DNA of 64,000 bases from a virus. Below the pieces are notes generated by a model. The model saw only the letters and a program-made list of their open reading frames with translations. It ran no database searches and was not told the DNA's origin. A program made the translations under genes and the position numbers. The DNA is taken from the IMG/VR virus record IMGVR_UViG_3300044695_006284, positions 1 through 64,000 of that record. One strand, 5' to 3'. Below, piece after piece: positions 306-14,505 of this stretch (its first letter is position 1; each line of letters starts with the position of its first letter).

Positions 306-306
306 T

Positions 307-539: not shown

Positions 540-545
540 AAATGC

Positions 546-755
546 ATGTTACAGAACTTAGAAATACCTGATCCATTTGCTACTTTTGTGGCACACAAAT
601 ATGCCAATTTTAAAGGCATGAAATATGACTTCTTTAGCGGTGAATGGGATATGGCATGCGGTGCATGCCAAGAGCCATTGAGCGCTCCAACTAAGAAAAT
701 ATTGACTAAGATCAGACTATATCATACTCGTAATGAATGTCTTGGGGGATACTGA
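546..755 (+). CDS. small C2HC zinc-finger-like protein
   Basis: CGAC ... HTRNEC. Confidence 0.65.
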   Translation: MLQNLEIPDPFATFVAHKYANFKGMKYDFFSGEWDMACGACQEPLSAPTKKILTKIRLYHTRNECLGGY

Positions 756-1100
756 TGATAGATAAGATTATAGGTAGAGATCCCAATTGCTATACAGGCG
801 GTGACTGCTGGAATTATGACTATTCAGATAGATGGTTGTTACTCTTCGGTATCACAATATCAATAGTAGTCATAGCCAGAATAATACGCAATAAAAGGCG
901 GGGTGGCAAATAGGTATGGCAAAAAAGCGGAAATTCAATTGGGATCAACAGCTTCAATATGCCCAAGAAGCATTAGATAAGAATAAAGCCCTAATAGAGT
1001 CTACATCTAGAGGAACTAATGCAAATAAGGCTTCATCTTGGTCTAGAAGACCATCTAAAAACAAAAGCCCATTGCAGTAAGATAATGGTAGAATAGACCT

Positions 1101-1577
1101 ATGAAGAAGATAATGATAGCTGATGTGGTTAAGGCAGTTGCAGAAGAAATAGAATCTGAAGAAGATAGAGCCATTCGTGAAGAAGTGGCAGAATCTCTTG
1201 GCGTAGAGCCAGGTGATGTAGATGACGATGATGTTGAAAATTACCTATCAATGGGCGGGAACAAAGGGGAGCTGGAATCCTCAGTAGGCCCAATACAATG
1301 GATATATGACAATAAAGATAAGACATATGTCGTATACATGATAGTTACAACCATGGGAAAGCAAAGAGATATCATATACAATATAGACCCTAATATAATG
1401 AAAGACTGGAGAGATTCTCAGTCTATGGGAGAATATTGGAATATGAATATCAGATCCAATGAAGCAATTGAAAATAAGGCAAGAAGCAAAGATTTTCCTA
1501 TTGGTGGATGTAAACCAAATCCTGTGGACCCACAGGTTGTCGATAGATTTTCCACCAGATTTGCTGCCATATCCTAA
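1101..1577 (+). CDS. protein with acidic N-terminus and KTSC-like C-terminal domain
   Basis: YD....Y.V....Y.I......W..S.S.GEYWN.NIR resembles the KTSC pattern. Confidence 0.5.
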   Translation: MKKIMIADVVKAVAEEIESEEDRAIREEVAESLGVEPGDVDDDDVENYLSMGGNKGELESSVGPIQWIYDNKDKTYVVYMIVTTMGKQRDIIYNIDPNIMKDWRDSQSMGEYWNMNIRSNEAIENKARSKDFPIGGCKPNPVDPQVVDRFSTRFAAIS

Positions 1578-1628
1578 TATCCCCCTCCCTTTAATCTCCC
1601 TTGTATGAGCCTCCTAGAGGCTTATTTA

Positions 1629-1654
1629 GTGGAGTATTGTGGAGTAAAGTGGAG
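1629..1654 (+). repeat. GTGGAG x3 with exact 10-bp period
   Basis: Copies at 1629, 1639, 1649 in non-coding DNA. Confidence 0.7.
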
Positions 1655-1798
1655 AATCATACTATTAATTTAGGCCTAAATACTATCATTATATATATCT
1701 GAATATACCTGTGTAATGGTACAAACGATATCATTTCGTAATCGTAATGTCAATAGCGCCCATATAAAGCATATTGGCCAATATATGTCAATAGATAT

Positions 1799-1853
1799 TT
1801 CCAGGATATTTAAAATATGTTCGTAAAGAGCAATTTTGGCCCATATTTATGCC
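1799..1853 (+). repeat. tripartite element copy 1 (TTCCAG-N17-CGTAA-N13-CCC)
   Basis: Fixed spacing; weak terminal hairpin. Confidence 0.7.
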
Positions 1854-1943
1854 AAAAAATTATGTCTAATTCTGTATAATTTGTCTCATATAATGAGATA
1901 TTTTATACAGATTTTGACAGATTTTATTCAATATGCATACAAA

Positions 1944-1998
1944 TTCCAGCGTATTTTTACATGCGTCGTAAAGAGAAAATTTGGCCCATAAGATGGGC
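1944..1998 (+). repeat. tripartite element copy 2
   Basis: TTCCAG-N17-CGTAA-N13-CCCAT AAG ATGGGC. Confidence 0.8.
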
Positions 1999-2200
1999 AT
2001 ACAAAAATGGGACATATAGCTAATTAAAGCCATATGCCCCATAGGGGAAATTTATCTATCTAGTAATCTATTTCCAAATGCTTCACCGATCATCATAATT
2101 AATGCAATCATTACAAAAAAGACCATGAATAGTGTCCATATAAATCCTGTTGCAAATAATATGATTAATAGATTAAGTAAGACTATATTCCATGGTTTCA

Positions 2201-2545
2201 TTAGAATGAATCCAAATCCATTATATACTTAGGGTCTCTTACTCTTGTTTCTTTCAAGGAGTCTATTGTTAGGTTTCTATCCACCGCTCCATATTTTGCT
2301 TCCAGCATATCATTGAGCGCATCTGCTAAAAGCAATCCTTCGGATGTATATCCTTTATCCCATTCTGACTTTAATCTAAGGGAATTATATTGGATAATAT
2401 ATCTAACTAGTTCCATTAGTCTGTCTTGGGTATACAAGGTATGTTCAGTTGTTAGTACATTAGCCATTACTGCTGGTGAGAAGTTAGCATTATTTAGATA
2501 GTCTGTTAGTTTTTCTGCCGCTTTGAATTCGTTCGCCTTAGCCAT
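2201..2545 (-). CDS. hypothetical early protein
   Basis: ORF with CGAAAGGCGG RBS and upstream promoter. Confidence 0.8.
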   Translation of the reverse strand: MAKANEFKAAEKLTDYLNNANFSPAVMANVLTTEHTLYTQDRLMELVRYIIQYNSLRLKSEWDKGYTSEGLLLADALNDMLEAKYGAVDRNLTIDSLKETRVRDPKYIMDLDSF

Positions 2546-2565
2546 GAGTTCCGCCTTTCGTTTTG

Positions 2566-2587
2566 ATTATACCATTGACCACTGACA
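2566..2587 (-). promoter_or_regulatory. RecA-NDp/PafBC-type promoter
   Basis: TGTCAG-TGGTCAATGG-TATAAT. Confidence 0.8.
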
Positions 2588-2599
2588 TTTGTAAATGAA

Positions 2600-2630
2600 G
2601 GGGGACCTGCCTCCGAAGAGGAAGGTCCCC
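2600..2630 (-). terminator. UUCG-capped hairpin, probable terminator after the Lsr2-like gene
   Basis: GGGGACCT.CCTC-TTCG-GAGG.AGGTCCCC. Confidence 0.65.
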
Positions 2631-2641
2631 ACAGTTAGTTA

Positions 2642-2791
2642 TTACTTGACGTTCTTCTTGTCTGTGAAGACTACGCCTTCTTGTGCTGCCTTGCTGATAG
2701 CTCCTAGAGCTGCAGCTGAAAAGCGGCCACGCTTGCCCACAGAAATTCCCTGGGCCTTTAGGTATTCACGAGTTGTTGTTGGTGTTGACAT
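2642..2791 (-). CDS. 49-aa stand-alone Lsr2-like DNA-binding domain (absent from the ORF track)
   Basis: MSTPTTTREYLKAQGISVGKRGRFSAAALGAISKAAQEGVVFTDKKNVK; RE....G..V..RGR motif; GAAAGGA RBS. Confidence 0.75.
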   Translation of the reverse strand: MSTPTTTREYLKAQGISVGKRGRFSAAALGAISKAAQEGVVFTDKKNVK

Positions 2792-2837
2792 AGTTTGATC
2801 CTTTCTAGATCGAGTTGTTATATATATTATATCCGAA

Positions 2838-2895
2838 TTTCGGGGTTTTGTAAATAGGGTCGTAAAGCAATATTTTTGCCCGTGTCCCTTAGCTT
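2838..2895 (+). repeat. tripartite element copy 3 (variant TTTCGG)
   Basis: TTTCGG-N17-CGTAA-N13-CCC. Confidence 0.65.
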
Positions 2896-2939
2896 AATGA
2901 CCGTTATGTCCGAATTGTCCATAACGGCCAAAGCTATCT

Positions 2940-3122
2940 TTATTCAGTTGTTAGTTCTTCTACTTGGTATGGCTCTATCTTATCCTTTTTAGCAGCAGCC
3001 TTTACCCATTCCTTTTTTGGGCTTGATACTGCCTTATACCATGCGTCATCGCTATCATCTGCAGTTACTACAATGTAGTAATCCTGAATGATATCTCCAT
3101 AGACTTTATATTGTTTGCTCAT
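2940..3122 (-). CDS. hypothetical early protein
   Basis: ORF in an overlapping operon. Confidence 0.7.
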   Translation of the reverse strand: MSKQYKVYGDIIQDYYIVVTADDSDDAWYKAVSSPKKEWVKAAAKKDKIEPYQVEELTTE

Positions 3123-3256
3123 AGTCCTACCTGCTCTATCTTATCTTTAATTAATTTAGCAATGATGTTGTGCGCCTCGATGTTTTCTGTTTCGGACCCA
3201 CCCCATAGCAAGGCCTGGGCCTTACTAAGTTGATCGTTTAGATACTCATCACTCAT
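3119..3256 (-). CDS. 45-aa hypothetical protein (MSDEYLNDQ...)
   Basis: Fills the gap and overlaps both neighbours. Confidence 0.6.
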   Translation of the reverse strand: MSDEYLNDQLSKAQALLWGGSETENIEAHNIIAKLIKDKIEQVGL

Positions 3257-3563
3257 CTTCATCTTCGTCCTCCTCCTCTTCATCTTCAGGGTCTACGATG
3301 TAGTCCCTGTTTAACATCCATTCTAAAACTTCTTCTTGGTGCTGTTCTGCTCCCCATTCCAAGGAGAACCCCATACCAGCCTCCACGGCCTCACACAGGT
3401 GGTTCCACATGTCTTCTTGGGTTGCCTTGGCAACATAGGTGTCATCCTCTAGAATGCCATTGATTGTCGACCATGTCCACAACCAAACTAATGATAGACC
3501 TAAGTCAGTGCTGTCTAGAATCTCTAGACATTTGTTTAGTTTATCTTTATCTTCAGGCTTCAT
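3249..3563 (-). CDS. hypothetical protein with acidic tail
   Basis: ORF in operon. Confidence 0.75.
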   Translation of the reverse strand: MKPEDKDKLNKCLEILDSTDLGLSLVWLWTWSTINGILEDDTYVAKATQEDMWNHLCEAVEAGMGFSLEWGAEQHQEEVLEWMLNRDYIVDPEDEEEEDEDEDE

Positions 3564-3843
3564 TTGCTACACCAAAATCTGTTCTCTCTTGAATTGCAAA
3601 TGAGAGTTGATATGTTAATCGGTACAGGTCAACCAGCATGTCTAATCGTCCTTCACACTCTGTACGGACCATAGAGTCCATTGCTTCCTCTGATAGTTCT
3701 TCTTGCTCTAAAGCGCTTGTTAGGTCTTGCTCAGCAATAAGCATTAGATTCTTTAGTTCTCCGTGCAAGATATCAAGACCTGATACTCCTGCATTGACCA
3801 TGCGTTGCAAATGGGGCGGGAGCCCAATGTCTTCTTCATTCAT
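3553..3843 (-). CDS. hypothetical early protein
   Basis: ORF in operon. Confidence 0.75.
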   Translation of the reverse strand: MNEEDIGLPPHLQRMVNAGVSGLDILHGELKNLMLIAEQDLTSALEQEELSEEAMDSMVRTECEGRLDMLVDLYRLTYQLSFAIQERTDFGVANEA

Positions 3844-4046
3844 TAGATTACCTCATAGTTCACTAGTGTTGATTCATTTAAGTTGTTTGCCCAATCAGGC
3901 TTTCCTTCTACCCAATCATATTCAATATCGATATCTCCTCCGCCTTCGGCAGGAGCACCAATTTTTATTACCAATTCTGTCCCGTCCTCAAAAAAGATTT
4001 GTTCGACGGCGGAACGATAAGTAACTTCTCTAGATGATATATTCAT
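3843..4046 (-). CDS. hypothetical early protein
   Basis: AACGAAAGG RBS. Confidence 0.75.
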   Translation of the reverse strand: MNISSREVTYRSAVEQIFFEDGTELVIKIGAPAEGGGDIDIEYDWVEGKPDWANNLNESTLVNYEVI

Positions 4047-4234
4047 TATTCATACCTTTCGTTAGTAGAGTTCATTATATCAGTTGCCACTGACAATAAA
4101 TGCCTGGTTGCATAAATCTGTCCCTCAATATCTACTACATGTAAAGACATAGGATTTTCTTCTAGGTCTTGTTCTAAACTAATTAGATGTAATTTAATAT
4201 ACTCTAAGAATGCAGATGACTTAGTCATTATCAA
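4046..4234 (-). CDS. hypothetical early protein
   Basis: ORF; its 3' end contains the next promoter. Confidence 0.65.
   Translation of the reverse strand: MIMTKSSAFLEYIKLHLISLEQDLEENPMSLHVVDIEGQIYATRHLLSVATDIMNSTNERYE
4074..4095 (-). promoter_or_regulatory. RecA-NDp/PafBC-type promoter (inside CDS)
   Basis: TGTCAG-TGGCAACTGA-TATAAT. Confidence 0.75.
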
Positions 4235-4403
4235 AATATCCTTCTGCCCATAGCCCCTGGAGGAAGTCCTGTGCCTTTAGTAGCCCGTCCACAATTGGAT
4301 CTTCATCAACACGAACGATATCTGATTTAAGAATATAGAAAAGCTTGGCGTCATGCATAGCATTTCCCATTTCATCTATATCTGTTTTAGTATATCCTAG
4401 CAT
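4221..4403 (-). CDS. hypothetical early protein
   Basis: GGAGG RBS. Confidence 0.7.
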   Translation of the reverse strand: MLGYTKTDIDEMGNAMHDAKLFYILKSDIVRVDEDPIVDGLLKAQDFLQGLWAEGYFDND

Positions 4404-4543
4404 TCAATTGCCTCCATATATTTAAGCATAGTGTTGAGTGTTATGTGAATATAACAATCACAATCATCTGATGTATCTCTGTCATCAAAATGGATTAAGT
4501 TGTCATCATAGATATAATCAATTAGTTCTTGGCTGGTAATCAT
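4397..4543 (-). CDS. 48-aa hypothetical protein (MITSQELID...)
   Basis: Fills the gap with overlaps. Confidence 0.55.
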   Translation of the reverse strand: MITSQELIDYIYDDNLIHFDDRDTSDDCDCYIHITLNTMLKYMEAIEC

Positions 4544-4752
4544 AAGCAATACTCATCTCCTTCGATATATCCATAATATTCATTGTATGATTGCTTTAAG
4601 TTATCAGGAGCAAATTGCATAAATCTCCATTCAGCATATGCTTCCCCTTCATCTAAATTAGATTGATTCCAATCTTCAAATAATGCTTGCTCAATATCTA
4701 CTTGAATTGCTCCAAGGATATGTTCTCCTACTGTATCTGTAAATGCTTCCAT
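4540..4752 (-). CDS. hypothetical acidic protein
   Basis: GAAAGGCGG RBS. Confidence 0.7.
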   Translation of the reverse strand: MEAFTDTVGEHILGAIQVDIEQALFEDWNQSNLDEGEAYAEWRFMQFAPDNLKQSYNEYYGYIEGDEYCL

Positions 4753-5486
4753 TATGCTTCCGCCTTTCTATATTCGGGTACTTTAGTGTCTAAGTATATC
4801 TTATGGGTCTGACAAATTGCTACAGCCTCTAGGTCAGCATTGCCTAGCCAGTTGCAGTTGCCACAGATTTCACCGCAGTCATTGTCGCAGTATTCCATTT
4901 GGTCGGTTGCATCACAATCACGGCACATGTTATCGTATTCTGATTCTGATATAACTTCTCCACGGAGGAATTCCATTTCCCCACCCCAACCTGTTTCTTC
5001 TTCGTATGATAAAGTAAATAGTAGATTAGGATACTGTGCAGATAGTTTAGAGATAGCGCCAAGAGGTCGTGACCATGCAGTGTTAAAGTTGTAATGAACT
5101 ACATAGTTCTCGCCATTTTCTGCTTCTTCAATAGTTGTATCAGGATACTTATTATCCTCGGCTACAGCAACATCCCACTTGGTTCCCCACTCACGCACAT
5201 TAAAGTTGTACCAGTCATTGGTTTCAAACTTCATTGCCTGAGAAAAGTCGGTGGAACGAGGAGGCTGTCCATGATATTCCTCATCAGTAATACCAGCATC
5301 TCTATAGTTATAGATATTATGAAAAGCAAAGATAGGATTAACATACTTAGTCTGCTTGACATCATATGATAAATCACCTAATGCAGTAATAGAATAAACA
5401 AATGGCTTATTCATCTGCTTGATTAAAGATTTAACTTGCTCAGGATTACCTTCAATAGTTAATCCATTAAATACCCAATTTGGCAT
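4752..5486 (-). CDS. YubB/DUF1281-like ferredoxin-like domain protein with C-terminal Cys cluster
   Basis: Start reassigned to MPNWVFN; WY.FN...WGTKW and FNTAWS.P motifs. Confidence 0.75.
   Translation of the reverse strand: MPNWVFNGLTIEGNPEQVKSLIKQMNKPFVYSITALGDLSYDVKQTKYVNPIFAFHNIYNYRDAGITDEEYHGQPPRSTDFSQAMKFETNDWYNFNVREWGTKWDVAVAEDNKYPDTTIEEAENGENYVVHYNFNTAWSRPLGAISKLSAQYPNLLFTLSYEEETGWGGEMEFLRGEVISESEYDNMCRDCDATDQMEYCDNDCGEICGNCNWLGNADLEAVAICQTHKIYLDTKVPEYRKAEA
4793..4814 (-). promoter_or_regulatory. RecA-NDp/PafBC-type promoter (inside CDS)
   Basis: TGTCAG-ACCCATAAGA-TATACT. Confidence 0.7.
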
Positions 5487-5513
5487 TTTATATCCTTTCG
5501 TTGATATGTTCCA

Positions 5514-5535
5514 ATTATACAATGGACCACTGACA
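5514..5535 (-). promoter_or_regulatory. RecA-NDp/PafBC-type promoter
   Basis: TGTCAG-TGGTCCATTG-TATAAT. Confidence 0.8.
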
Positions 5536-5601
5536 AATGGAATAGAATTGGCATGTGATACATGCCACATGATTCAGCTTTGTGGTCAACATCACAGCAA
5601 A

Positions 5602-5661
5602 TTCCAGGGAATATAATTGACAGTCGTAAAGACAATATGCTACCCTCATGTCTTTGAGGGC
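5602..5661 (+). repeat. tripartite element copy 4
   Basis: TTCCAG-N17-CGTAA-N13-CCCTC...GAGGGC. Confidence 0.8.
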
Positions 5662-5690
5662 AAAGAAAAACCCCCAGCTTAACTGGGGGT
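5662..5690 (-). terminator. Rho-independent terminator
   Basis: CCCCCAG-TTAAG-CTGGGGG-TTTTTCTTT. Confidence 0.8.
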
Positions 5691-5809
5691 CTTGAATAAT
5701 GGCTGCCTGGATTTCCAACGAAAGAAATAAACCCGCTTTACTTAGCGCCTGGCCCGAAGACTGATAGACGCACCATTATATTTCCTATTAAAACCAGGAC
5801 CTTAGTCCT
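5662..5809 (-). ncRNA. candidate ~145-nt structured sRNA with anti-leader loop
   Basis: Extended -10 TGGTATAAT (5816-5824); several stems; intrinsic terminator at 5662-5690. Confidence 0.5.
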
Positions 5810-5816
5810 AGTCTAA

Positions 5817-6182
5817 TTATACCATAACTAGTCGACTGTATTTGTCTACGAATGATGCTAAGGATGAACTAAATACAACTGTTTTTAGGTCTTCCTCGTA
5901 TAGCGTAAATGTTTGGTTTGTCCAATCAATTACAGGGACCTTGTGTTCGTTGTCTCCCAATTGGTTGACATAGATACCCCACGATAATGTTTGGTTCCAG
6001 TCTTCTCCAATTAGATGTGATATAGCAATGCGTGTTGCATATGACTCATCCTGCCAACGGGACTCCGCTGCCTGCACTGCATTTGCTAGTTTGGCTAGCA
6101 TGTCATACCCAGCCCAGTGTCCATATAGAAATACTACATTTTCCTTGGAATCTCTGAATCCAAAGTTTGCTCTGTCGCCCAT
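5817..6182 (-). CDS. hypothetical phage protein (MGDRAN...LYGHWAG)
   Basis: ORF with GGCGG RBS. Confidence 0.8.
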   Translation of the reverse strand: MGDRANFGFRDSKENVVFLYGHWAGYDMLAKLANAVQAAESRWQDESYATRIAISHLIGEDWNQTLSWGIYVNQLGDNEHKVPVIDWTNQTFTLYEEDLKTVVFSSSLASFVDKYSRLVMV

Positions 6183-6184
6183 TT

Positions 6185-6385
6185 TTATTCCGCCGTTTCT
6201 AAAGTAGGTATTGCTAGTTCTATCTTGTCTAATTCTATCACTTCATAGGCTACCTTGTCTAGGCCTGCCTTGTTTTTATTGTAGTGGTGACCGCAAAAAG
6301 CTAACTCACCATCTACTAGTTTAACTAGATACATTGCATCTGCTGATCCACATGCATCACATGGAATGAACTCTCTGTCTCTCAT
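6185..6385 (-). CDS. small Zn-binding protein (CDAC...FCGHH)
   Basis: Cys/His motif. Confidence 0.75.
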   Translation of the reverse strand: MRDREFIPCDACGSADAMYLVKLVDGELAFCGHHYNKNKAGLDKVAYEVIELDKIELAIPTLETAE

Positions 6386-6528
6386 AGAGCACCGCCCTCA
6401 ATCATCTCAGAAAGACGGTCAAGAATCCAAGAATCAATATCGTTGATATCAATTTCTGATAACTTCTCCATTATTTCTTCACGGGCAAACTTATACCCGT
6501 CATCCCAGCCATCCTTATAGTCTGACAT
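6382..6528 (-). CDS. 48-aa hypothetical protein (MSDYKDGWDDGY...)
   Basis: AGGAG RBS; ATGA overlap with next gene. Confidence 0.65.
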   Translation of the reverse strand: MSDYKDGWDDGYKFAREEIMEKLSEIDINDIDSWILDRLSEMIEGGAL

Positions 6529-6537
6529 AATCTCTCC

Positions 6538-6741
6538 TTAATAACCTGTGGTTTCGTAGTCTGATACATAAGATTCAGTTAAGTTATACTTATCTCTAAG
6601 TCTACTTACTTTCTCAATACTACCAGTTCCAATGTTGAATGTCAATGCAGACATTGCTTGTGGGTCAAGTCCTGTTATTTGTGCATCCCAATAGGCCATC
6701 TCCATGGATAGCCTATCAGGAGCGGTAAGTTCAAAGTACAT
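6538..6741 (-). CDS. hypothetical early protein
   Basis: ORF. Confidence 0.7.
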   Translation of the reverse strand: MYFELTAPDRLSMEMAYWDAQITGLDPQAMSALTFNIGTGSIEKVSRLRDKYNLTESYVSDYETTGY

Positions 6742-7358
6742 TAGCCCTCGATTCTATCTACAGATGATGATAGCCAACTAATACCGTCTGAGTCATAAGA
6801 AACAGTGTCAAAATCAATATCATGAATTAGATTGTGTGCAGACTCTTCATCACGAGCATTAACTGTAATTGAATATAGAACTGTTACTTCTAGTTCAAAC
6901 TCATTTGTTAGTTCAAATCCACAGATGCCAGCAATTTCTTCTGCTTGAAATTCTGTAAGAGATTCGTCATCAAGGCCTTCGAGTGTGAATACCTTCATGT
7001 CATCACGCAATTTGCTTAGAGTTCCTGCAGTTGCATAATCACGCTGAGTTATACGCTGGATGTGCTCTTCTAACTGTGTAATGCGGGCTTTGTTATCTAC
7101 TAACTGTGACTCAAGAAATTCCCGTGTCAAGTAGTGATTATCTGTTGTTGTTTCCATTTTATCCTCTTTCGTTGTTGTTGGTGTAATTGTAGCATGCTCC
7201 ACTGACAATAATGTGGTCTTGCGTCCGCATGGGCATGTGAGTTCTGTCACACCTGAAGGAAAGCCAAATCCATCAGATGATGTTAGTTCTATTAATGAAT
7301 CGCATTCATCTGGGTCACAGACAAATGTATACTTGCTTGATACTAGTTCGTTGGTCAT
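6741..7358 (-). CDS. Zn-ribbon plus coiled-coil protein with an internal in-frame start at 7157
   Basis: Leaderless ATG7358; internal promoter and RBS precede ATG7157. Confidence 0.7.
   Translation of the reverse strand: MTNELVSSKYTFVCDPDECDSLIELTSSDGFGFPSGVTELTCPCGRKTTLLSVEHATITPTTTKEDKMETTTDNHYLTREFLESQLVDNKARITQLEEHIQRITQRDYATAGTLSKLRDDMKVFTLEGLDDESLTEFQAEEIAGICGFELTNEFELEVTVLYSITVNARDEESAHNLIHDIDFDTVSYDSDGISWLSSSVDRIEG
7186..7207 (-). promoter_or_regulatory. RecA-NDp/PafBC-type promoter (inside CDS)
   Basis: TGTCAG-TGGAGCATGC-TACAAT. Confidence 0.75.
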
Positions 7359-7365
7359 AAAGAGA

Positions 7366-7387
7366 ATTGTACCAGGTCCCACTGACA
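7366..7387 (-). promoter_or_regulatory. RecA-NDp/PafBC-type promoter
   Basis: TGTCAG-TGGGACCTGG-TACAAT. Confidence 0.8.
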
Positions 7388-7398
7388 TTATCAAGGAT

Positions 7399-7456
7399 TT
7401 CCAGGGGATATTTATGTGAGTCGTAACACACTTTTTGCCCCCTTAGCTTTGAGGGC
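7399..7456 (+). repeat. tripartite element copy 5
   Basis: TTCCAG-N17-CGTAA-N13-CCCTTAGCTTTGAGGGC. Confidence 0.8.
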
Positions 7457-7459
7457 GCT

Positions 7460-7536
7460 TGGCGATCCATAACGGACTTGAACCGTCGACCTCTACCGTG
7501 ACAGGGTAGCGCTCTAACCAACTGAGCTAATGGACC
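7460..7536 (-). tRNA. tRNA-Asp(GTC)
   Basis: Cloverleaf; CTACC-CT GTC AC-GGTAG anticodon arm; GTTCAAG T-loop; encoded CCA. Confidence 0.95.
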
Positions 7537-7549
7537 TGGAAAAAATTGT

Positions 7550-7576
7550 GAGCAGTTTTTATTCATGCTCAGGAAT
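7550..7576 (-). ncRNA. 27-nt H-type pseudoknot copy A
   Basis: ATTC-CTGAGCAT-GAAT-AAAAAC-TGCTC. Confidence 0.6.
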
Positions 7577-7584
7577 TTATTTAT

Positions 7585-8592
7585 TTAGAACGCAGAAATT
7601 AATTTCTTAATTTTATTTTTTTCTGCGGTTAGAATTGGGTCAAACCCTGATGCACCCGCCATGAGTGTTTCAGAATTTCCACGACCTGAACGATAGTAAT
7701 CAAGGCGTTCAGTAAGTGCATTGAATGCACCCCACTTTGTTCCCTTGATGTTAGCGTTAGTTGGTGAATTGTGATACAACTCGTCAAGCAACACGACTTT
7801 GTTTTCCCACTTAGTCAATGCAACTTTAGCAGCATCCTTATCAGGCTTAGGATAAATTGTCTGAATTAACTTTGAGAATTCAGCATCAGTGATTGATTGA
7901 GAATAAAGAGCCTGAGCCTCTTTCTCGAATTCATCAAAGTACCCAAGAGCAAGCCCAAGAGTTTCACGAGCAACTTGGATGCGACCTTCAACAGATTGCG
8001 TGTGGCGAATCTTGAAAGATTGCTTAGCATTCTTCATTGCAAGGTTAAGAGTGTTTTGGCATACAACACGAACAGGAGTAACAGCAGCCTGAACAGCAAC
8101 TGACCCGTCGTGAGATGTCCAAACAATTAGATACAACTTAGTTGCATCATTTGCGCCTTGTGGGTCAAGCACCATTGTGCGAGGAATATCCACTGTACCG
8201 AATACAACCTTACCGCTACGAAGTGAGCCAGCAGATTCCCAACGGCAATCTGCATTCGCATCGTGAATTGCATCTGCGAATGCAAATAGTTCCTCATTCT
8301 GCACAGGCTTGTAACGCTTTCCAACAGTTGCAAGAACATCAGTTCCATTGTTGAATGGGTTGTCACGAATAACTAATTGAGCATTAGATACATCATTCCA
8401 TGTATCTGAAATATGGTCAGTTAGTGGAGACAAGCGAACATTCCAGTTGGAAAGTTTTGCCTCATCTAACATCATTTGAGTTGTAACATCTTCATCTTGT
8501 GTAAAGATGCGATTTGCAAGGTTGTGCCATGCAGGTGCGCCACGAAGTGCGAATGCAACTTCGCCATTTTCCATTTCTAGATTATGAGCCAT
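7585..8592 (-). CDS. DUF932 (phage/plasmid LGT_TIGR03299-like) protein
   Basis: MAH...AWH.L, Y.PVQN, SHDGS, TPVRVVCQNTL, GT.WGAFNA.TE..D motifs. Confidence 0.9.
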   Translation of the reverse strand: MAHNLEMENGEVAFALRGAPAWHNLANRIFTQDEDVTTQMMLDEAKLSNWNVRLSPLTDHISDTWNDVSNAQLVIRDNPFNNGTDVLATVGKRYKPVQNEELFAFADAIHDANADCRWESAGSLRSGKVVFGTVDIPRTMVLDPQGANDATKLYLIVWTSHDGSVAVQAAVTPVRVVCQNTLNLAMKNAKQSFKIRHTQSVEGRIQVARETLGLALGYFDEFEKEAQALYSQSITDAEFSKLIQTIYPKPDKDAAKVALTKWENKVVLLDELYHNSPTNANIKGTKWGAFNALTERLDYYRSGRGNSETLMAGASGFDPILTAEKNKIKKLISAF

Positions 8593-8623
8593 TTTTTACC
8601 TTTCGTTTGTTTGATTAGTTGTA

Positions 8624-8645
8624 AGTATAACAGACCCCACTGACA
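8624..8645 (-). promoter_or_regulatory. RecA-NDp/PafBC-type promoter
   Basis: TGTCAG-TGGGGTCTGT-TATACT. Confidence 0.8.
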
Positions 8646-8702
8646 TTGTCTAGGATTAATTACAATATGTCCGAATTGATCCATGTGATTAATCTCACAA
8701 AA

Positions 8703-8760
8703 TTCCAGGGTTATCCACAAGTGGTCGTAACCCTGTGGATAACCCCTTAGCTTTGCGGGC
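8703..8760 (+). repeat. tripartite element copy 6 with two DnaA boxes
   Basis: TTATCCACA at 8711, TGTGGATAA at 8734. Confidence 0.85.
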
Positions 8761-8789
8761 CAGCTGCATATGCAGCTGGTGTTAGATCT

Positions 8790-9044
8790 TTACAGACCTA
8801 ACTCATCCCTAGTTAATTGGTTTTTGCGATTGAAGTTAATAACTTCGGACGGGAGGTAAAGAGCAGTTGTCTTAGTCTTCTTCAATGTATCATAGACATA
8901 AGCACGAACATCCCCTAAAAAGTTTCCTCTATTAGAGAATGCTAACTCAGTTAAATAATCTTTATCTACACCTTGTTCTGAATAGATTGTTACATCATTT
9001 GCTTTGTTTGCATCATAGATTTCTACTCTGAAACGATTTTTCAT
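8790..9044 (-). CDS. hypothetical early protein
   Basis: AAAGG RBS. Confidence 0.75.
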   Translation of the reverse strand: MKNRFRVEIYDANKANDVTIYSEQGVDKDYLTELAFSNRGNFLGDVRAYVYDTLKKTKTTALYLPSEVINFNRKNQLTRDELGL

Positions 9045-9079
9045 TTTGTTGCCTTTGTTAGTAGTTGTCCCAAAAGGGA

Positions 9080-9106
9080 GAGCAGTTTGGCGACATACTC
9101 AGGTCG
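9080..9106 (-). ncRNA. 27-nt H-type pseudoknot copy B
   Basis: CGAC-CTGAGTAT-GTCG-CCAAAC-TGCTC; stem covaries with copy A. Confidence 0.6.
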
Positions 9107-9115
9107 TTGGATTAT

Positions 9116-9538
9116 TTACAGATAACGAGCAATAGCATTGTAAGTGCTTGTGCTTACTGTTTCCTCATCTGTCATCTTTAGAATACGAATTGCGTTTTCC
9201 AATTCCTCTTTCATCTCATTGTATGAGTGGCGGTGGAGAACTTCGTAGTCCTTCTCAGGCTCTTTAGGAAAGTCTGACTCATTAACTGTTAAATCGAAAT
9301 CAACATTGAGTGTCTTATTCCATGAGCGATAGTTTGTGCGGAAGTTTTCTGCCTTAGCAAAATTAGCCATAGCGAACTTTCCTACTTCTTTGCGCCACTT
9401 CTCCATAGCCTTTTCATGCTTTGCTTCGTTGGCTTCTTGTGATGCGTAATCGGCATTTAACTTTGTCAAGCGAGTTTCTAGTGCCTTGATTACCTTTGGT
9501 GTTGCGATTTTTACGCTAATTGCTTTCTGTCGTGCCAT
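9116..9538 (-). CDS. hypothetical coiled-coil early protein
   Basis: Strong RBS and upstream promoter. Confidence 0.85.
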   Translation of the reverse strand: MARQKAISVKIATPKVIKALETRLTKLNADYASQEANEAKHEKAMEKWRKEVGKFAMANFAKAENFRTNYRSWNKTLNVDFDLTVNESDFPKEPEKDYEVLHRHSYNEMKEELENAIRILKMTDEETVSTSTYNAIARYL

Positions 9539-9577
9539 TTGTTTCCTTCTTTCGTTGTGAGTTGGGTTGATGAAGTA

Positions 9578-9599
9578 ATTATAGCAGGGGGGTCTGACA
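9578..9599 (-). promoter_or_regulatory. RecA-NDp/PafBC-type promoter
   Basis: TGTCAG-ACCCCCCTGC-TATAAT. Confidence 0.8.
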
Positions 9600-9624
9600 T
9601 TTCTGCGACCCCCCTCCCATTAAA

Positions 9625-9807
9625 TTAAACGCCTAGTAGTGTTTGAGCGGATACGGAAGTCCAACGAGTTTCCTTGTTGGGCATTTCCAATAGCACACGC
9701 ACCGAGCCAGATGTTTGTGGGTGGATTTCTTTAATCACACCTGTTTTCTTTGACTTGAGGGTAGTGAATAAATCGCCTACCTGATACAACTTGTCGTTGA
9801 TTGTCAT
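9625..9807 (-). CDS. small SH3/KOW-like protein
   Basis: YQVGD....K..TGVIKEI pattern. Confidence 0.65.
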   Translation of the reverse strand: MTINDKLYQVGDLFTTLKSKKTGVIKEIHPQTSGSVRVLLEMPNKETRWTSVSAQTLLGV

Positions 9808-9837
9808 TTATTGCCTCTTTTCTTTGTTAGGTTGGTA

Positions 9838-9859
9838 ATTATAGCATTGGGGTCTGACA
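9838..9859 (-). promoter_or_regulatory. RecA-NDp/PafBC-type promoter
   Basis: TGTCAG-ACCCCAATGC-TATAAT. Confidence 0.8.
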
Positions 9860-9908
9860 TTAGTCTAGCCCTGTCTCAGTATTTGAGAAAGTTATTGTGT
9901 GACCTTAG

Positions 9909-10169
9909 TCACTCAGGTAGCCAAGCGTGTAAGTGGTGAGCCTCGATGATCGCCCACACTGGCGCACATGTCTCACCTTTGTAAGTAATCCCATCAGGCA
10001 TTTCGATAGTTTCATCCCACATGTCATCATGAGCAAAATCTATTGCTTCGATACATACTGGCACCATAGAAAGTGGAACGGGTGGGTAATGATTACCCTG
10101 TAAGTGATAGCCTAGTGCTACTTCTAAATCTAATTCTTCAGATAAATCTAATGCTGTATTGTATCCCAT
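9909..10169 (-). CDS. hypothetical protein (HL.GNHYPPVP motif)
   Basis: ORF with AAGGTGG RBS. Confidence 0.8.
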   Translation of the reverse strand: MGYNTALDLSEELDLEVALGYHLQGNHYPPVPLSMVPVCIEAIDFAHDDMWDETIEMPDGITYKGETCAPVWAIIEAHHLHAWLPE

Positions 10170-10372
10170 TATTCTGCCACCTTTAGTATTGCGTAAGAGC
10201 CATTAGCATTTATTTCATCAAGAATTGGTTGTAGGCGTGGTGCTACTAAATCTTTTAGCATAGACTCTAGCATAAAGATACGAGTATCCTCATCAAGTGC
10301 CATAACCTGTTGAGTTACTGGATGATTGTCTGCAAACTCTGTTACAAACTTTAGATTGTGTTCTACTATCAT
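10169..10372 (-). CDS. hypothetical early protein
   Basis: AACGAAAGG RBS. Confidence 0.75.
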   Translation of the reverse strand: MIVEHNLKFVTEFADNHPVTQQVMALDEDTRIFMLESMLKDLVAPRLQPILDEINANGSYAILKVAE

Positions 10373-10403
10373 TTTTATTGCCTTTCGTTGTTGGTATAAG
10401 AGT

Positions 10404-10425
10404 ATTATACACTAGGGCACTGACA
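10404..10425 (-). promoter_or_regulatory. RecA-NDp/PafBC-type promoter
   Basis: TGTCAG-TGCCCTAGTG-TATAAT. Confidence 0.8.
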
Positions 10426-10480
10426 AATTGTGCAACACGCCCAAGCTTTATCTTATTTATTTTGTGATTAATCTCACAAA

Positions 10481-10539
10481 TTCCAGGGGGTTGTGGATAA
10501 GTCCCGTAAGCCTGTGGATAACCCCGCAGTATTGCGGGC
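10481..10539 (+). repeat. tripartite element copy 7 (N18) with two DnaA boxes
   Basis: TGTGGATAA at 10492 and 10513; CCCGCA-GTAT-TGCGGG hairpin. Confidence 0.85.
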
Positions 10540-10554
10540 CTGCATAGCTATGCA

Positions 10555-10686
10555 TTACTCTGCATATTTATTTTTATGTTTGATCTTTCGAAAATATTTT
10601 TTCTTATTACGAACAGGTTGCGCCGCATTACTGCGGCGCAATTCCTGAATTCGTTTTACTTTATCTCGAAGTGAATTTTGGGACAT
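10555..10686 (-). CDS. 43-aa highly basic protein
   Basis: MSQNSLRDKVKRIQELRRSNAAQPVRNKKKYFRKIKHKNKYAE. Confidence 0.55.
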   Translation of the reverse strand: MSQNSLRDKVKRIQELRRSNAAQPVRNKKKYFRKIKHKNKYAE

Positions 10687-10852
10687 GATACCCACTCGCT
10701 TCGTGAAATCGTTTTACATCAAATCGGTCATTATCTTTTGCGAACATCTCCGCAAAGTCATTAACCATTTTAGAAAATAACGCTGGGTGCGCTTTATCGC
10801 TTGCGAACTTTAGAATTTCTGCAACCGCGACATAATCTTTTCGTGTCATCAT
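10661..10852 (-). CDS. hypothetical protein (MTRKDY...DN.RFD..RF)
   Basis: ORF. Confidence 0.75.
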   Translation of the reverse strand: MMTRKDYVAVAEILKFASDKAHPALFSKMVNDFAEMFAKDNDRFDVKRFHEASGYHVPKFTSR

Positions 10853-11052
10853 TTTACTGCCACCATTCCACTACGATAGAAAACTTTTGTATAGCATTTG
10901 CCTGTTGGCGTGTAAATATTTACAGTTGAGTATTCGTTAGCAAAACCCCAATCGGTGAATAAGAAAAAGTTTTCCCACGCACCAAATTCGCTTTCGTATT
11001 CTGCTGACCAATGAGGAGCGTGTCCGTCATAAGCACAAGTTAATTTATACAT
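10849..11052 (-). CDS. hypothetical early protein
   Basis: ORF. Confidence 0.7.
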   Translation of the reverse strand: MYKLTCAYDGHAPHWSAEYESEFGAWENFFLFTDWGFANEYSTVNIYTPTGKCYTKVFYRSGMVAVK

Positions 11053-11195
11053 TAGTCATTTTCTCCGTTCCAAAATAGTGAGCCGTCATCTACGCAATCG
11101 CAAGGTTCGCAATCAAAATCATTATCATCACCAAAAAAGATTACTCCGTGTCCGTGGCAATCTTGGCAATCTATTGTTAATACTGAGTTAATCAT
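11052..11195 (-). CDS. 47-aa Cys-rich protein (CQDCHGHG...CEPCDC)
   Basis: TAATG overlaps on both sides. Confidence 0.6.
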   Translation of the reverse strand: MINSVLTIDCQDCHGHGVIFFGDDNDFDCEPCDCVDDGSLFWNGEND

Positions 11196-11359
11196 TAGTG
11201 TTGTTCCTCGCAATCTTTGTCATAGTCAAATCCGCAAAAGTAGCAACCCATAAATTCTAGGTGTTCGATACAGTAATACTTAAATTGACTTTCATCACAA
11301 CAAAAATGTTGCTCGTCTGCGATTTCATAGAAATCGGTTTTGTCGATTATGTTTAACAT
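11195..11359 (-). CDS. 54-aa Cys-rich protein
   Basis: AACGAAAGGA RBS. Confidence 0.65.
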   Translation of the reverse strand: MLNIIDKTDFYEIADEQHFCCDESQFKYYCIEHLEFMGCYFCGFDYDKDCEEQH

Positions 11360-11387
11360 AGTTTTCCTTTCGTTTGTTTATTTAGTT

Positions 11388-11409
11388 ATTGTATCAGTTA
11401 GCACTGACA
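11388..11409 (-). promoter_or_regulatory. RecA-NDp/PafBC-type promoter
   Basis: TGTCAG-TGCTAACTGA-TACAAT. Confidence 0.8.
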
Positions 11410-11480
11410 AATTTTGTGAGGGTTCTTACTTACGACATTGGGCGAGGACTCCCTCTAAACTGCCCCTGTTTCGATTTTAT

Positions 11481-11693
11481 TTAATCGGAAGTTTTTACGG
11501 CTAAATAGCGATAAGTATCTTTTAGATTTAGCGGTGCAGAATAAATTGGGCGTACCTGCACTTTGTAAGTATCTGCATTTGCATACCAGACACTATCATT
11601 TTTTTCTGCTGAAATAATTTCTCCAGTAAGAGAATTTGAGCGATACATTTTTCCTACAAGTAGGCTTTCGATAGTATAGACATTTGCTGACAT
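11481..11693 (-). CDS. hypothetical early protein (MSANVY...)
   Basis: Start reassigned using the CGAAAGGCGG RBS. Confidence 0.75.
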   Translation of the reverse strand: MSANVYTIESLLVGKMYRSNSLTGEIISAEKNDSVWYANADTYKVQVRPIYSAPLNLKDTYRYLAVKTSD

Positions 11694-11725
11694 TTGAGTC
11701 CGCCTTTCGTTTGTTGATAGTAGCA

Positions 11726-11747
11726 ATTATAGCGGATAGCACTGACA
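11726..11747 (-). promoter_or_regulatory. RecA-NDp/PafBC-type promoter
   Basis: TGTCAG-TGCTATCCGC-TATAAT. Confidence 0.8.
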
Positions 11748-11833
11748 AAAGATAATTACTAGCCAGTAATTCCAAATAATGAGACGCTCAAGCCGTGTGA
11801 TAAAAATCACAAAATCTCGGGCGTGTCGGAAAA

Positions 11834-11891
11834 TTCCAGGGGTTGTGGATAACCCCCGTAACCCTGTGGATAACCCCGCTCTTTTGCGGGC
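11834..11891 (+). repeat. tripartite element copy 8 with two DnaA boxes
   Basis: TGTGGATAA at 11844 and 11865; CCCGC-TCTTTT-GCGGG hairpin. Confidence 0.85.
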
Positions 11892-11924
11892 GCATCAGCT
11901 TTTGTCAAGCCGACACGCCTCTGC

Positions 11925-12724
11925 TTATTCGAAATCCTTAAAAATTTCTTCAAGCTTTAAGATTTGCTCATCTGTAAGATGATCAATTTCAATTGCTTTT
12001 TCAAATCCAAAAAAATCCATTATTCATTTTCCATTTCTGCTAAATAATCTTCATGTTCAATTAAGCCGACTGAAAAAGCGATTGGGTCGCAACATTCCAA
12101 AATTTCGGCGGGAGTAAAAGTAGAGTAACCAATTTTTACAGTAGGGTAACAGTCATTTAGTAAATCAATAAAGCTTTCCTTGATTTCTAAATCTTTTTCA
12201 AATTGTGTTTTCATTCGCTTAACTCCAAATCTCTTATGTCGGCAACATAAACATTATTTTTATCTATTCCGTATTTTAATTGAAATTGAAATGTATCAAT
12301 AGCCTCATCATAGGATTCAGCCTCGACATTTATAAAAGCATTAAACTCATAAACTGGCATGATTACCAACACTCCTCACAAGTAAATTTAGTAAAGTCTG
12401 CATCTTTTGCAAAAATCTCTAAATAGTTATTCGCACAAATTGTGCATGATAGCAAATAAGTTTTTGCCTTTTGATACATGTATGGATTAGAGTTAGATAA
12501 TTCTCTATTCTCTAAAACCTCTGATGAAATTAAAATACTCATTTAGTTAAACTCCAATCGGTGTAAAATGGTAAGCGGTCATAGTCATCATAGAAATAAA
12601 CTCTATCTATGTTCTGCTCGCATGTTTCGCAGAAAGTGTATTCGACATCTACGCCCATGCCATAGGTAGTAGATACGCTCTCCATGTGTGGAGTGTGTGT
12701 ATGTGTATTTGTTAGTGTAGTCAT
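11925..12724 (-). CDS. operon of five small hypothetical genes (12724-12539, 12542-12363, 12360-12211, 12214-12020, 12020-11925)
   Basis: Abutting or overlapping ORFs; several have CxxC motifs. Confidence 0.6.
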
Positions 12725-12756
12725 TTGAGACCACCTTTCTTTTTCGTTATGGTAGT

Positions 12757-12778
12757 ATTTTACCACGGGGGTCTGACA
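12757..12778 (-). promoter_or_regulatory. RecA-NDp/PafBC-type promoter
   Basis: TGTCAG-ACCCCCGTGG-TAAAAT. Confidence 0.8.
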
Positions 12779-12847
12779 TTTATCTACCTACTAGCCAGTA
12801 ATTCCAAGATGTGAGACGCTCAGCCTATGTGATAATTATCACATAAA

Positions 12848-12905
12848 TTCTGGGGTTTTCCACAGATGCCCGTAACCCTGTGGATAACCCCGCTCTTTTG
12901 CGGGC
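12848..12905 (+). repeat. tripartite element copy 9 (TTCTGG) with DnaA boxes
   Basis: TTTTCCACA at 12856 (one mismatch), TGTGGATAA at 12879. Confidence 0.8.
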
Positions 12906-13058
12906 CAGCTCGACATTGTCAAGCCGACACGCCGTTAGGCTAGTGTGACTCTTGCCACATCTCTCGCATCTCTGCCTTAAAGTCATGCCATACGATCCTC
13001 GCCATGTATAGGGCGGGTAGGGCAAGGGATAACTGCACTAGTGTAGTAAGTAGTCTAT

Positions 13059-13524
13059 TCATGCGGTCACCTTGATGTCCATTACATTAGCGGTAAACTT
13101 TTTAACCTTGCCTAATTCGCTATCGTTGAGCGATTGTATTACATGGTCAATAGCCTTAGCCTCATGCGCTACATTGTCAATAGAGATTAGTTTAGAGCCT
13201 TGCCAAATTGAGTAAGTGATAGTCATTATTAGTTCTCCCATGTTAGTTGGTATAGTTTTGCTAGTTCTTCATCATCTGAGTCATCAAATTCATCTAGTGG
13301 AGGTTGTTCCTCATCTACCTCATCGAGGTATGCGTATGCGTCTGCGACATCTGATTGGATAGTGTCCCACTTAGACACGCTGTTAGTTTCGTATGAGTAT
13401 GCGTATGACATTATTTATTCATCTCCTCTGCGATAGCCTTAGACTTAGTTAGTGCCTCTAGGGCTACTGATAGGGAGGCAAGGCGTTGAGCCTCTACCAT
13501 TTGCTTGTATTCATCTAGTGTCAT
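13059..13524 (-). CDS. three small hypothetical genes (13524-13411, 13411-13229, 13226-13059)
   Basis: Coupled ORFs, each with an RBS. Confidence 0.65.
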
Positions 13525-13555
13525 TATTCTGACCTTTCGTTGTTGTTATGTTGTA

Positions 13556-13577
13556 AGTGTAGCATGGGGGTCTGACA
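13556..13577 (-). promoter_or_regulatory. RecA-NDp/PafBC-type promoter
   Basis: TGTCAG-ACCCCCATGC-TACACT. Confidence 0.8.
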
Positions 13578-13616
13578 AATTGGGGAGGTTAGCCTAGTGT
13601 GTCGGTGTGAGGTGTG

Positions 13617-13787
13617 TCACCTTCCTCGCTTAACTCGAATAGCCTCGGCTTGCGCTAACTGCTCAGGTGTAGCGTTGCGGAAAGCCTGTACGCTCTCCCT
13701 TATCCAAGGTGACTTAGCCATAGCCTTTTCGTGAGCGATAGCGTTGCGCTCTTGTTGTTCTTTTCTAATTCGTTCTAGTGTATTCAT
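13617..13787 (-). CDS. first gene of the leftward block, hypothetical
   Basis: Start reassigned to MNTLER using the AACGAAAGG RBS. Confidence 0.7.
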   Translation of the reverse strand: MNTLERIRKEQQERNAIAHEKAMAKSPWIRESVQAFRNATPEQLAQAEAIRVKRGR

Positions 13788-13822
13788 TAGATGATTACCT
13801 TTCGTTTTGTTGTTATACCTTA

Positions 13823-13844
13823 AGCATAGCATGGGGGACTGACA
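13823..13844 (-). promoter_or_regulatory. RecA-NDp/PafBC-type promoter
   Basis: TGTCAG-TCCCCCATGC-TATGCT. Confidence 0.8.
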
Positions 13845-14505
13845 AATTGAGGCACATCTCGGGCGTGTCGCAAAAAAATCTTTGTGATGCTAATCACACT
13901 CACGCTCAAGCCCGAAAGAATAATGGGCGCACTATCCAAAATGTCCGTTTTGTCCAGGGTGTGTATCATACATGTAAAAAATATATTAACATTTTCTTAA
14001 ATCTGAAAAAGCAGTCGACTAGAATATAAAGCGGTGGTACAATAGAGCTATGACATGTTCCTTTTGTGATAAGTATGCATACACAAGTATGATCAATAAC
14101 CTTGGCGTAAAATATTATCTTTGCGAAACACATATAAAACAAAACAGCACAATCTCTTGACTTTGATAAAAACTAAATGCTACACTTAGTTTGCTTTGTG
14201 GGGGGCTTACCCTGAAACTCAATATGTACCAGATAACATCTGTGGATATATGTTCCAGGAATTGCTTTCTCTATCTTTCCAAAAAGAAAAAATTTGGGGG
14301 GTAGGGGGGCTTTCCTAAAATCTAATATCCCCAGATAAAATCTATAAAACAAGATAAAAAACATAAGACAAATAGGTGAATAGAGACTTTACATATTCAC
14401 TTAAAAAAACGGGGGTAGAACAGTGAAACTTCTTTGCCAAATAGCCATAATAACTGTCATTACTTTTATCCTTGGTATACTCATACAGATAATAGGCTAA
14501 TATAA

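Follow-up and report, generated by a model that had tools for sequence, protein, structure and literature searches.

What is the function of a sequence element that is repeated nine times, always in the same orientation, among the small genes of a phage? The question is posed by IMG/VR virus record IMGVR_UViG_3300044695_006284, which is 98,133 bp long and estimated to be 78% complete; its first 64 kb constitute the window, i.e., the whole stretch of DNA analysed here. The record is an uncultured freshwater actinobacterial phage in which a block of small genes (2052-14364) lies entirely on the minus strand, while every other gene of the record is on the plus strand. The copies of the element span positions 1796-12917, and each consists of ~70 bases harboring two fixed boxes and a small GC hairpin. 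The anatomy of the element, its spacing, its co-orientation, its embedded boxes, and its conservation across the clade are direct observations. Its function is proposed tentatively: on the strength of sequence comparison, each copy may be a composite cassette, read on the gene strand, that joins a stem-loop to a docking site for RNA polymerase or an activator, akin to the promoter(early) stem-loop (PeSL) elements of T4-type phages.

The pattern TTCCAG-N16-19-CGTAA has seven exact matches, all on the plus strand, with TTCCAG at 1799, 1944, 5602, 7399, 8703, 10481, and 11834; 0.04 are expected, and seven are reached in none of 100 shuffles. Two more copies, at 2838 (TTTCGG) and 12848 (TTCTGG), deviate by one or two bases and keep the frame. 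A profile of the nine copies run over the whole record returns exactly those nine, all on the plus strand, with E-values from 1e-14 to 7e-9. Both searches bear out the nine co-oriented intergenic copies proposed in an initial annotation made from the sequence.

A weighted consensus of 105 distinct copies reads aAaTTCCAGGG-N15-yCGTAA-N12/13-cCCC-loop-TGcGGGC. CGTAA is the most invariant block (97-100%), and CCC is nearly invariant too; an A-tract precedes the TTCCAGGG box, and a T-rich tract follows it. Within the record, eight copies have 17 nt between the two boxes (spacer 1) and the copy at 10481 has 18 nt, just as first annotated, and the distance from CGTAA to CCC is 12-13 nt. Among 284 copies, spacer 1 measures 17 nt in 199, 18 nt in 70, and 16 nt in 7, such that 276 of the 284 lie at 17±1, while spacer 2 measures 11-14 nt; there is no length compensation between the two. 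The conserved spacing on which the initial annotation had staked the element is therefore kept in relatives. On either flank no feature is fixed, and nothing stands at a constant distance outside approximately −27 to +35 around CGTAA; the element is self-contained. Its four blocks hold ~43 bits, where 14.6 would suffice to mark nine sites, and this excess suggests more than one recognizer, or shared descent. Since the genes of the block are on the minus strand, the motif as first written is antisense to them. On the gene strand it reads stem-loop-N13-TTACG-N17-CTGGAATTT, in which TGGAAT, the gene-strand form of block 1, has G at position 2 in 86% of copies; CAGAAT, TAGAAT, and TAGATT occur as natural variants of this block, in the register of a −10 hexamer.

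The spacers had been described as free, and this does not hold. Their sequence differs between paralogous copies but is conserved between orthologous ones, and they harbor boxes of their own. Two DnaA-type boxes are present in each of the copies 8703, 10481, 11834, and 12848 (in all, seven perfect TTATCCACA and one TTTTCCACA), while the rest of the genome has a single weak DnaA box. The second box keeps a constant orientation, and the first occurs in either. In relatives, the first box decays (to ATATCCACA or TTTTCCACA) with no compensating change in its partner; the pairs therefore look like predicted protein sites on DNA and not like RNA stems. Another sequence, CGACACGCC, recurs at 11820-11828, 11911-11919, 12925-12933, and 13862-13870 and can occupy the DnaA box slot in spacer 2 of relatives. 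A further DNA-binding protein probably recognizes it.

The third component, a terminal hairpin with compensatory changes according to the initial annotation, stands in part. A CCC..GGG(C) hairpin is present in seven of the nine copies; 1799 differs (TTTTGGC/GCCAAAA), and 2838 has none at that place. In 91 diverse copies, 90% of cells pair, compared with 87% when shuffled (0/500) and 30-58% when slid. Double changes are seen at stem positions 4-5 (G-C, T-A, A-T, C-G), yet the fourth pair is broken in 34 of the 91. The stem is 3-6 bp of CCC/GGG only, and nothing downstream is complementary to CGTAA. No global RNA fold is common to the single copies on either strand, and Rfam covariance models run on 1-15000 with E up to 1 match only the two tRNAs. 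Loops on the gene strand are purine-rich (AAAAGA, AAAGCUAA), and copies 1799 and 1944 read TGCTCTTTACGA and TTCTCTTTACGA, which are boxA-like. The strand tests of the hairpin by energy and by pair counts are contradictory: folding energy favors gene-strand RNA in 50 clusters versus 17 (of 71), anchored counts give 10 G.T versus 8 A.C, and stem-column counts give 77 G.T versus 16 A.C on the plus strand.

The individual copies, with what is embedded in or adjoins each of them, are as follows.

1742..1761, plus strand: half copy, TCGTAA-N11-CCC without block 1; kept in relatives.
1796..1865, plus strand: copy 1, terminal, outside the minus-strand block beyond its last gene; TTCCAG at 1799 and CGTAA at 1822; hairpin of its own, TTTTGGC..GCCAAAA.
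1939..2009, plus strand: copy 2, also terminal, at a distance of 145 nt from copy 1; hairpin GCCCAT-AAG-ATGGGC.
2834..2907, plus strand: copy 3, variant TTTCGGGG, without the CCC..GGG hairpin; overlaid on the gene strand by a consensus promoter, TTTACA-17-TATAAT (2854-2826), that serves the Lsr2-like gene at 2642-2791.
5597..5666, plus strand: copy 4, hairpin CCCTCA..TGAGGG; beyond it, a separate minus-strand intrinsic terminator at ~5680-5700.
7395..7467, plus strand: copy 5, with a hairpin that adjoins tRNA-Asp at its 3′ end; on the gene strand, block 1 is followed after 14 nt by a PafBC-type promoter.
8699..8769, plus strand: copy 6, inverted DnaA box pair, 8711-8719 and 8734-8742, one per spacer.
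10476..10550, plus strand: copy 7, spacer of 18 nt; direct DnaA box pair, 10492-10500 and 10513-10521.
11830..11903, plus strand: copy 8, direct DnaA box pair, 11844-11852 and 11865-11873; bracketed by the inverted repeat CGACACGCC at 11820 and 11911.
12844..12917, plus strand: copy 9, variant TTCTGGGG; DnaA-type boxes at 12856-12864 (TTTTCCACA) and 12879-12887.

The profile did not pick up two further stretches, TTACA-N15-CTGGAC on the minus strand at 13952-13977, which has no hairpin, and TTCCTGGAA...TATCCACAG in the non-coding divergent region at 14250-14290; on their sequence, both are possible relics of the element.

The element is a property of the clade. Across 121 related IMG/VR contigs, 472 copies are found, always on a single strand of any given contig. 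Relatives with complete genomes (115-117 kb) harbor 8 or 9 copies, all inside one 10-kb block and in a constant layout that includes the two close copies at the outer end. Judged by this distribution, the copies are ancient and syntenic rather than mobile. The initial annotation had asked whether gene-content breakpoints coincide with copies, and there is no such enrichment: of 873 internal homology breakpoints, collected from 75 relatives, 75 (8.6%) are no more than 25 nt from a copy, and copies account for 8.9% of the block. The lone hot spot, at 10500-10600 beside copy 10481, has 48 ends. At 10481 and 11834, the homology blocks of relatives break on the hairpin side, which suggests that the cassette travels with the downstream unit. 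The cultured relative Streptomyces phage BillNye is without the element.

In three divergent relatives (L216 3017-3112, L217 5074-5172, and L034 1136-1234), the two terminal copies abut with a 50-nt period, and the only pairing partner for the CCC of the first copy is the GGG in block 1 of the second; each pair is followed by a cluster of three DnaA-type boxes. Separately, contigs from two RNA libraries join 9603 to ~11418 with 12 or 15 bases between. This join is a natural variant without 1.8 kb, copy 10481 included, and its ends are away from any copy.

The genes among which the copies lie have promoters of their own. The PafBC-type promoter motif of Actinobacteria is tGTCgg(N10)tA(N3)T (PMC8635444). 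The corresponding pattern TGTCA[GC]-N10-TAnnnT has 16 matches at 2566-13844, all on the minus strand, and none elsewhere in the 98 kb; most are followed by a common leader, ACGAAAGG-N7-9-ATG. From these matches, the whole block seems to be wired to the host DNA-damage activator, while other genes of the genome use TTGACA/TGnTATAAT promoters. The copies of the element head six units: six of the 16 PafBC-type promoters have a copy upstream, and three copies have no such promoter after them. CRP-type palindromes, TGTGA-N6-TCACA, in perfect or near-perfect form, are also present, at 5581-5596, 7236-7251, 8684-8699, 10463-10478, 11796-11811, 12828-12843, and 13883-13898. They adjoin five copies, and two stand without a copy beside them. 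Assuming a start 7 nt after the −10, the CRP centers are at approximately −64.5, −74, −81.5, and −85 of PafBC-type promoters, positions which indicate that the CRP-type boxes belong to these promoters. At 7337-7394 on the minus strand, the PafBC-type −10 TACAAT (7371-7366) precedes the likely start codon (ATG) of the next gene by only ~9 nt, which suggests a leaderless mRNA; leaderless mRNAs are common in Actinobacteria.

RNA-library contigs run across copies 8703 and 11834. These data are assembled contigs only, with neither strand nor ends, and their uncovered parts are uninformative. Passage across the two copies speaks against a tight terminator, though the contigs are strandless and DNA carry-over is possible.

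How might such an element act? Under the proposal favored here, each copy comprises, in the gene direction, a small GC stem-loop, 12-13 bp, TTACG, 17±1 bp, and CCCTGGAATTT; that the gene (minus) strand is the one read is what we infer. The stem-loop would insulate its unit from transcription entering from the upstream unit. The two boxes would dock the host RNA polymerase, via an alternative sigma factor or an activator/adaptor, and docking would supply each unit with a second input in addition to that of its PafBC-type promoter. Host proteins would be able to modulate docking through DnaA boxes or the CGACACGCC box in or beside the 17-bp spacer. A docking site at the DNA level is favored by the 17±1 bp between unlike boxes, the further boxes in or beside the spacer, and the ~43 bits of information, and a 17/18-bp spacer between invariant boxes is the geometry of sigma-70-family promoters. 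The gene strand is favored by the position at the head of units, the linkage to the downstream unit, the promoter overlying 2838, the −10-like variants of block 1, and the weak excess, 10-15 nt beyond block 1 in the gene direction, of a −10-like hexamer (present in 62 of 96 sequence clusters versus 31-46 of 96 at control offsets).

Several observations weigh against this docking proposal. Housekeeping −10 hexamers need A at position 2, which TGGAAT does not have, and TTACG is a poor −35; both are unlike the TTGACA/TGnTATAAT promoters elsewhere in the genome. The downstream hexamer excess comes mostly from CRP-type boxes, and its distance varies by 4-5 nt; the distance from a copy to the next PafBC-type promoter is likewise variable, from 14 to ~90 nt. 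There is no obvious functional reason for a constant 12-13 bp from an upstream stem-loop to a −35 box. Some conserved copies have a weak or missing hairpin, and the terminal copies of divergent relatives are without the 3′ arm. No open reading frame (ORF) follows the two and a half copies situated beyond the last gene of the block. Finally, the Sigma70_r2 profile has no match in six clade genomes (this record and five complete relatives, G000-G005).

Other searches for a cognate factor gave similar results. The r4_2 profile finds in G000-G005 only a 51-amino-acid helix-turn-helix protein, below the cut-off. A T7-type RNA polymerase profile has no match in the record or the five complete relatives, a weak absence since the control matched in no genome. 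A hidden RNA polymerase among the large proteins was considered and rejected, these being the tape measure protein, tail proteins, and the DNA polymerase III alpha subunit. PHROGs and Pfam scans of the small proteins identify no regulator. In 185,579 bacterial species genomes, the strict motif, hairpin included, has six unrelated single matches, i.e., chance level; it is thus not a common host promoter, with the proviso that the pattern included the hairpin. None of the sigma-54, sigma-B/F, SigH/R, BldN, or LexA-box readings fits in sequence and spacing together. No described family was matched by the element, and no description of it was found in the literature and databases searched.

The element may start, stop, or block transcription and may be read in either direction. 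A broader claim spans both directions: the element would be the recognition site for a new way of directing actinobacterial RNA polymerase, either a second adaptor-dependent class resembling “sigma adaptation” or an antisense network of the extracytoplasmic function (ECF) type, wired to DnaA status across the clade and timing or silencing the PafBC-driven accessory block. This claim is doubtful, and a shade more so than the docking proposal itself.

Foremost among the alternatives, while unlikely in its own right, is a plus-strand, antisense promoter of the ECF type, one of three functions offered in the initial annotation. Here TTCCAGGG would be the −35, CGTAA the −10, and the hairpin the 5′ terminus of an antisense RNA, transcribed counter to the PafBC-driven genes and in the direction of those on the plus strand; DnaA boxes in the spacer or over the start would repress it. 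ECF −10 elements typically contain CGT, and ECF −35 elements usually have an AAC core. The first property is shared by the most invariant block, CGTAA, and the annotation is upheld as to the 17±1 bp spacer and this invariance; the second is absent, and profile searches of the six clade genomes find no gene for a sigma factor or RNA polymerase. The T-rich tract after the −35-like box and the A-tract before it suit a promoter, and a 5′-terminal stem-loop would explain the constant 12-13 nt from CGTAA to the hairpin. The two terminal copies lie where plus-strand transcription would enter the block, with no minus-strand gene after them, and all copies are co-directional with all genes outside the block. 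No plus-strand ORF or terminator follows the copies, however, and the motif is at chance level in bacterial genomes. The G.T excess in plus-strand stem columns speaks for an antisense RNA and is contradicted by the hairpin energies (50 of 71 clusters).

Less probable again is that the element is an operator or roadblock, where a DNA-binding protein of phage or host would impose one-directional shut-off or insulation on the PafBC block in the manner of L5 stoperators, the stem-loop aiding release of the stalled polymerase. Such a role would suit copies that are confined to the block at 8-9 per genome, stand at unit borders, and are doubled at the outer border, as well as the strict co-orientation in 121 contigs and an information content above the need of nine sites. 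DnaA boxes abut the core blocks, such that binding could compete or cooperate, and small helix-turn-helix proteins are present in the clade. On the other hand, three unlike blocks over 60 bp are unusual for an operator, covariation of the hairpin would not be explained by a protein that binds duplex DNA, and no candidate regulator is tied to the element. Since no integrase is encoded, the phage is probably not a temperate one with a repressor.

An improbable third alternative is a cis-acting RNA element in minus-strand transcripts, in which processing, 3′-end protection, or antitermination between units would be mediated by a boxB-like hairpin with UUACG and CCCUGGAAUUU after it in single-stranded form. 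The stem covaries, the hairpin energies favor gene-strand RNA, the gene-strand loops are purine-rich as in lambda boxB, copies 1799 and 1944 are boxA-like, and RNA-library contigs span two copies. Set against this are the lack of a common fold beyond the small hairpin, the absence of the boxA-like stretch from most copies, hairpins that are weak or absent in some conserved copies, and the conflict of the strand tests; DnaA boxes in either orientation, without compensating changes, point to recognition of DNA. The small-gene arrays of BillNye, punctuated by sense-strand hairpins, also lend this alternative some credit. In that phage (L221, NC_042105.1), a GC hairpin with a UUCG, GAAA, or GCAA loop (UUCG or GNRA type) stands in nearly every small-gene gap of 18000-42000, directly followed by AAGCTT(CCC) and then a ribosome-binding site, 48 times in sense versus 14 in antisense orientation. 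No description of this hairpin-AAGCTT punctuation was found in the literature searched, and the motif does not occur in the present record.

A small chance is left to some explanation other than the five set out here. The last of these five, a site on single-strand DNA at which nicking, recombination, or priming would occur and which would delimit exchangeable cassettes, or a checkpoint for stepwise DNA ejection (the two other functions initially annotated), is very improbable: a hairpin plus short motif at constant distances and in one strand orientation is the style of attC, IS200/IS605 ends, repetitive extragenic palindromic (REP) elements, and ssi signals, and the hot spot of 48 ends adjoins copy 10481, but the Phage_integrase and Resolvase profiles find no tyrosine or serine recombinase in five genomes, no HUH enzyme is seen in the proteins that were scanned, the copies show no enrichment of breakpoints, the 1.8-kb deletion ends away from them, and they are syntenic and not mobile.

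The proteins of the record are of siphovirus type and include a portal, a protease, a capsid, a 3,778-amino-acid tape measure protein, and a ribonucleotide reductase; further along are the DNA polymerase III alpha subunit, a DnaB-like helicase, primase, SSB, RecA, and RuvC. The portal shares 56-58% identity with its counterparts in Streptomyces phages belonging to the family Stanwilliamsviridae. A megablast of the block against cultured phages gives no match. An actinobacterial host is what the PafBC-type promoters, the nearest cultured kin (Streptomyces phages), and an Lsr2-like gene point to at the sequence level. The latter is a 49-amino-acid ORF at 2642-2791 on the minus strand, with its own consensus promoter, TTTACA-17-TATAAT; read by eye only, its RGR-containing sequence resembles the Lsr2 DNA-binding domain. 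The tRNA-Asp gene is at 7460-7536 on the minus strand. The non-coding stretch 1578-1700 is conserved above the level of the adjoining genes in all relatives. It holds TATCCCCCTCC, the hairpin GAGCCTCCTAGAGGCT, and three GTGGAGTA repeats ~11 nt apart, and it may be a non-coding RNA or the iterons of an origin or packaging site.

Next to nothing is known about how phages that infect uncultured freshwater Actinobacteria regulate their genes. In this block, three host signals (PafBC-type promoters, DnaA boxes, and CRP-type boxes) come together with an element of fixed frame that is specific to the clade and unlike any known sigma consensus. Should the element serve as a docking site for RNA polymerase or an adaptor, it would define a new promoter class and offer a means of tracking down the factor; should it be an antisense promoter or roadblock, it would be a compact example of a lytic phage switching off an accessory block. 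In either case, the motif is a precise marker, with its 472 copies in 121 contigs, for finding this phage clade and its regulated genes in metagenomes.

Among known systems, integron attC sites are distinguished by RYYYAAC...GTTRRRY paired sites and a long imperfect hairpin, neither of which the element has, and no cognate recombinase is present in five genomes. Lambda nut and rrn boxB-boxA signals share with it a GC stem of 5-6 bp, a purine-rich gene-strand loop, and an adjoining short conserved motif. This likeness is limited, as a GCTCTTTA-like boxA core is found in the 1799 and 1944 types only, the other copies reading GGGTTACG or GTGTTACG, and as boxes for DNA-level protein binding lie inside the element; we know of no N-like protein in this phage. 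L5 stoperators, from cluster A mycobacteriophages, are single 13-bp sites bound by the prophage repressor. They too are numerous, co-oriented, intergenic actinophage sites, and they act on passing transcription, whereas the element, a composite of 60-70 bp, includes a hairpin, and its clade is without an integrase.

The comparison with promoters is closer in geometry than in sequence. Like ECF promoters (−35, 16-17 bp, CGT-type −10), the element has a spacer of 17±1 with a T-rich start and an invariant CGTAA; unlike them, it has no AAC core in TTCCAGGG, no cognate sigma gene in the phage, and, if so read, would face against the genes. Neither the housekeeping TTGACA/TAnnnT nor the ECF AAC...CGT consensus is matched on either strand. 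In “sigma adaptation”, PafBC and SiwR elements stand at approximately −26 to −18 of a −10-like hexamer (PMC8635444, PMC10693628). The PafBC-type promoters share with the element a genome block and a presumed host, and in one sub-reading block 1 would occupy the same −26 to −18 position; the sequences are unlike, the −10-like hexamer is weakly enriched at a distance that varies by 4-5 nt, and the TTACG and hairpin blocks are additional.

The nearest parallel is offered by the PeSL elements of T4-type phages, composites of a stem-loop and a bipartite promoter-like sequence that are repeated between small accessory genes, co-oriented, and kept among close relatives (PMC2839356, PMC4122927). The present element likewise joins a stem-loop to a bipartite promoter-like sequence, is repeated among small accessory genes, and is conserved in close relatives. 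It differs in that PeSL boxes follow the host sigma-70 consensus and its own do not, in that PeSLs mark insertion/deletion breakpoints and its copies show no enrichment of them, and in that separate PafBC-type promoters mostly follow it and DnaA boxes lie inside its frame. The element, which is real, well delimited, and clade-wide, is best filed with the composite promoter and stem-loop cassettes of other phages.

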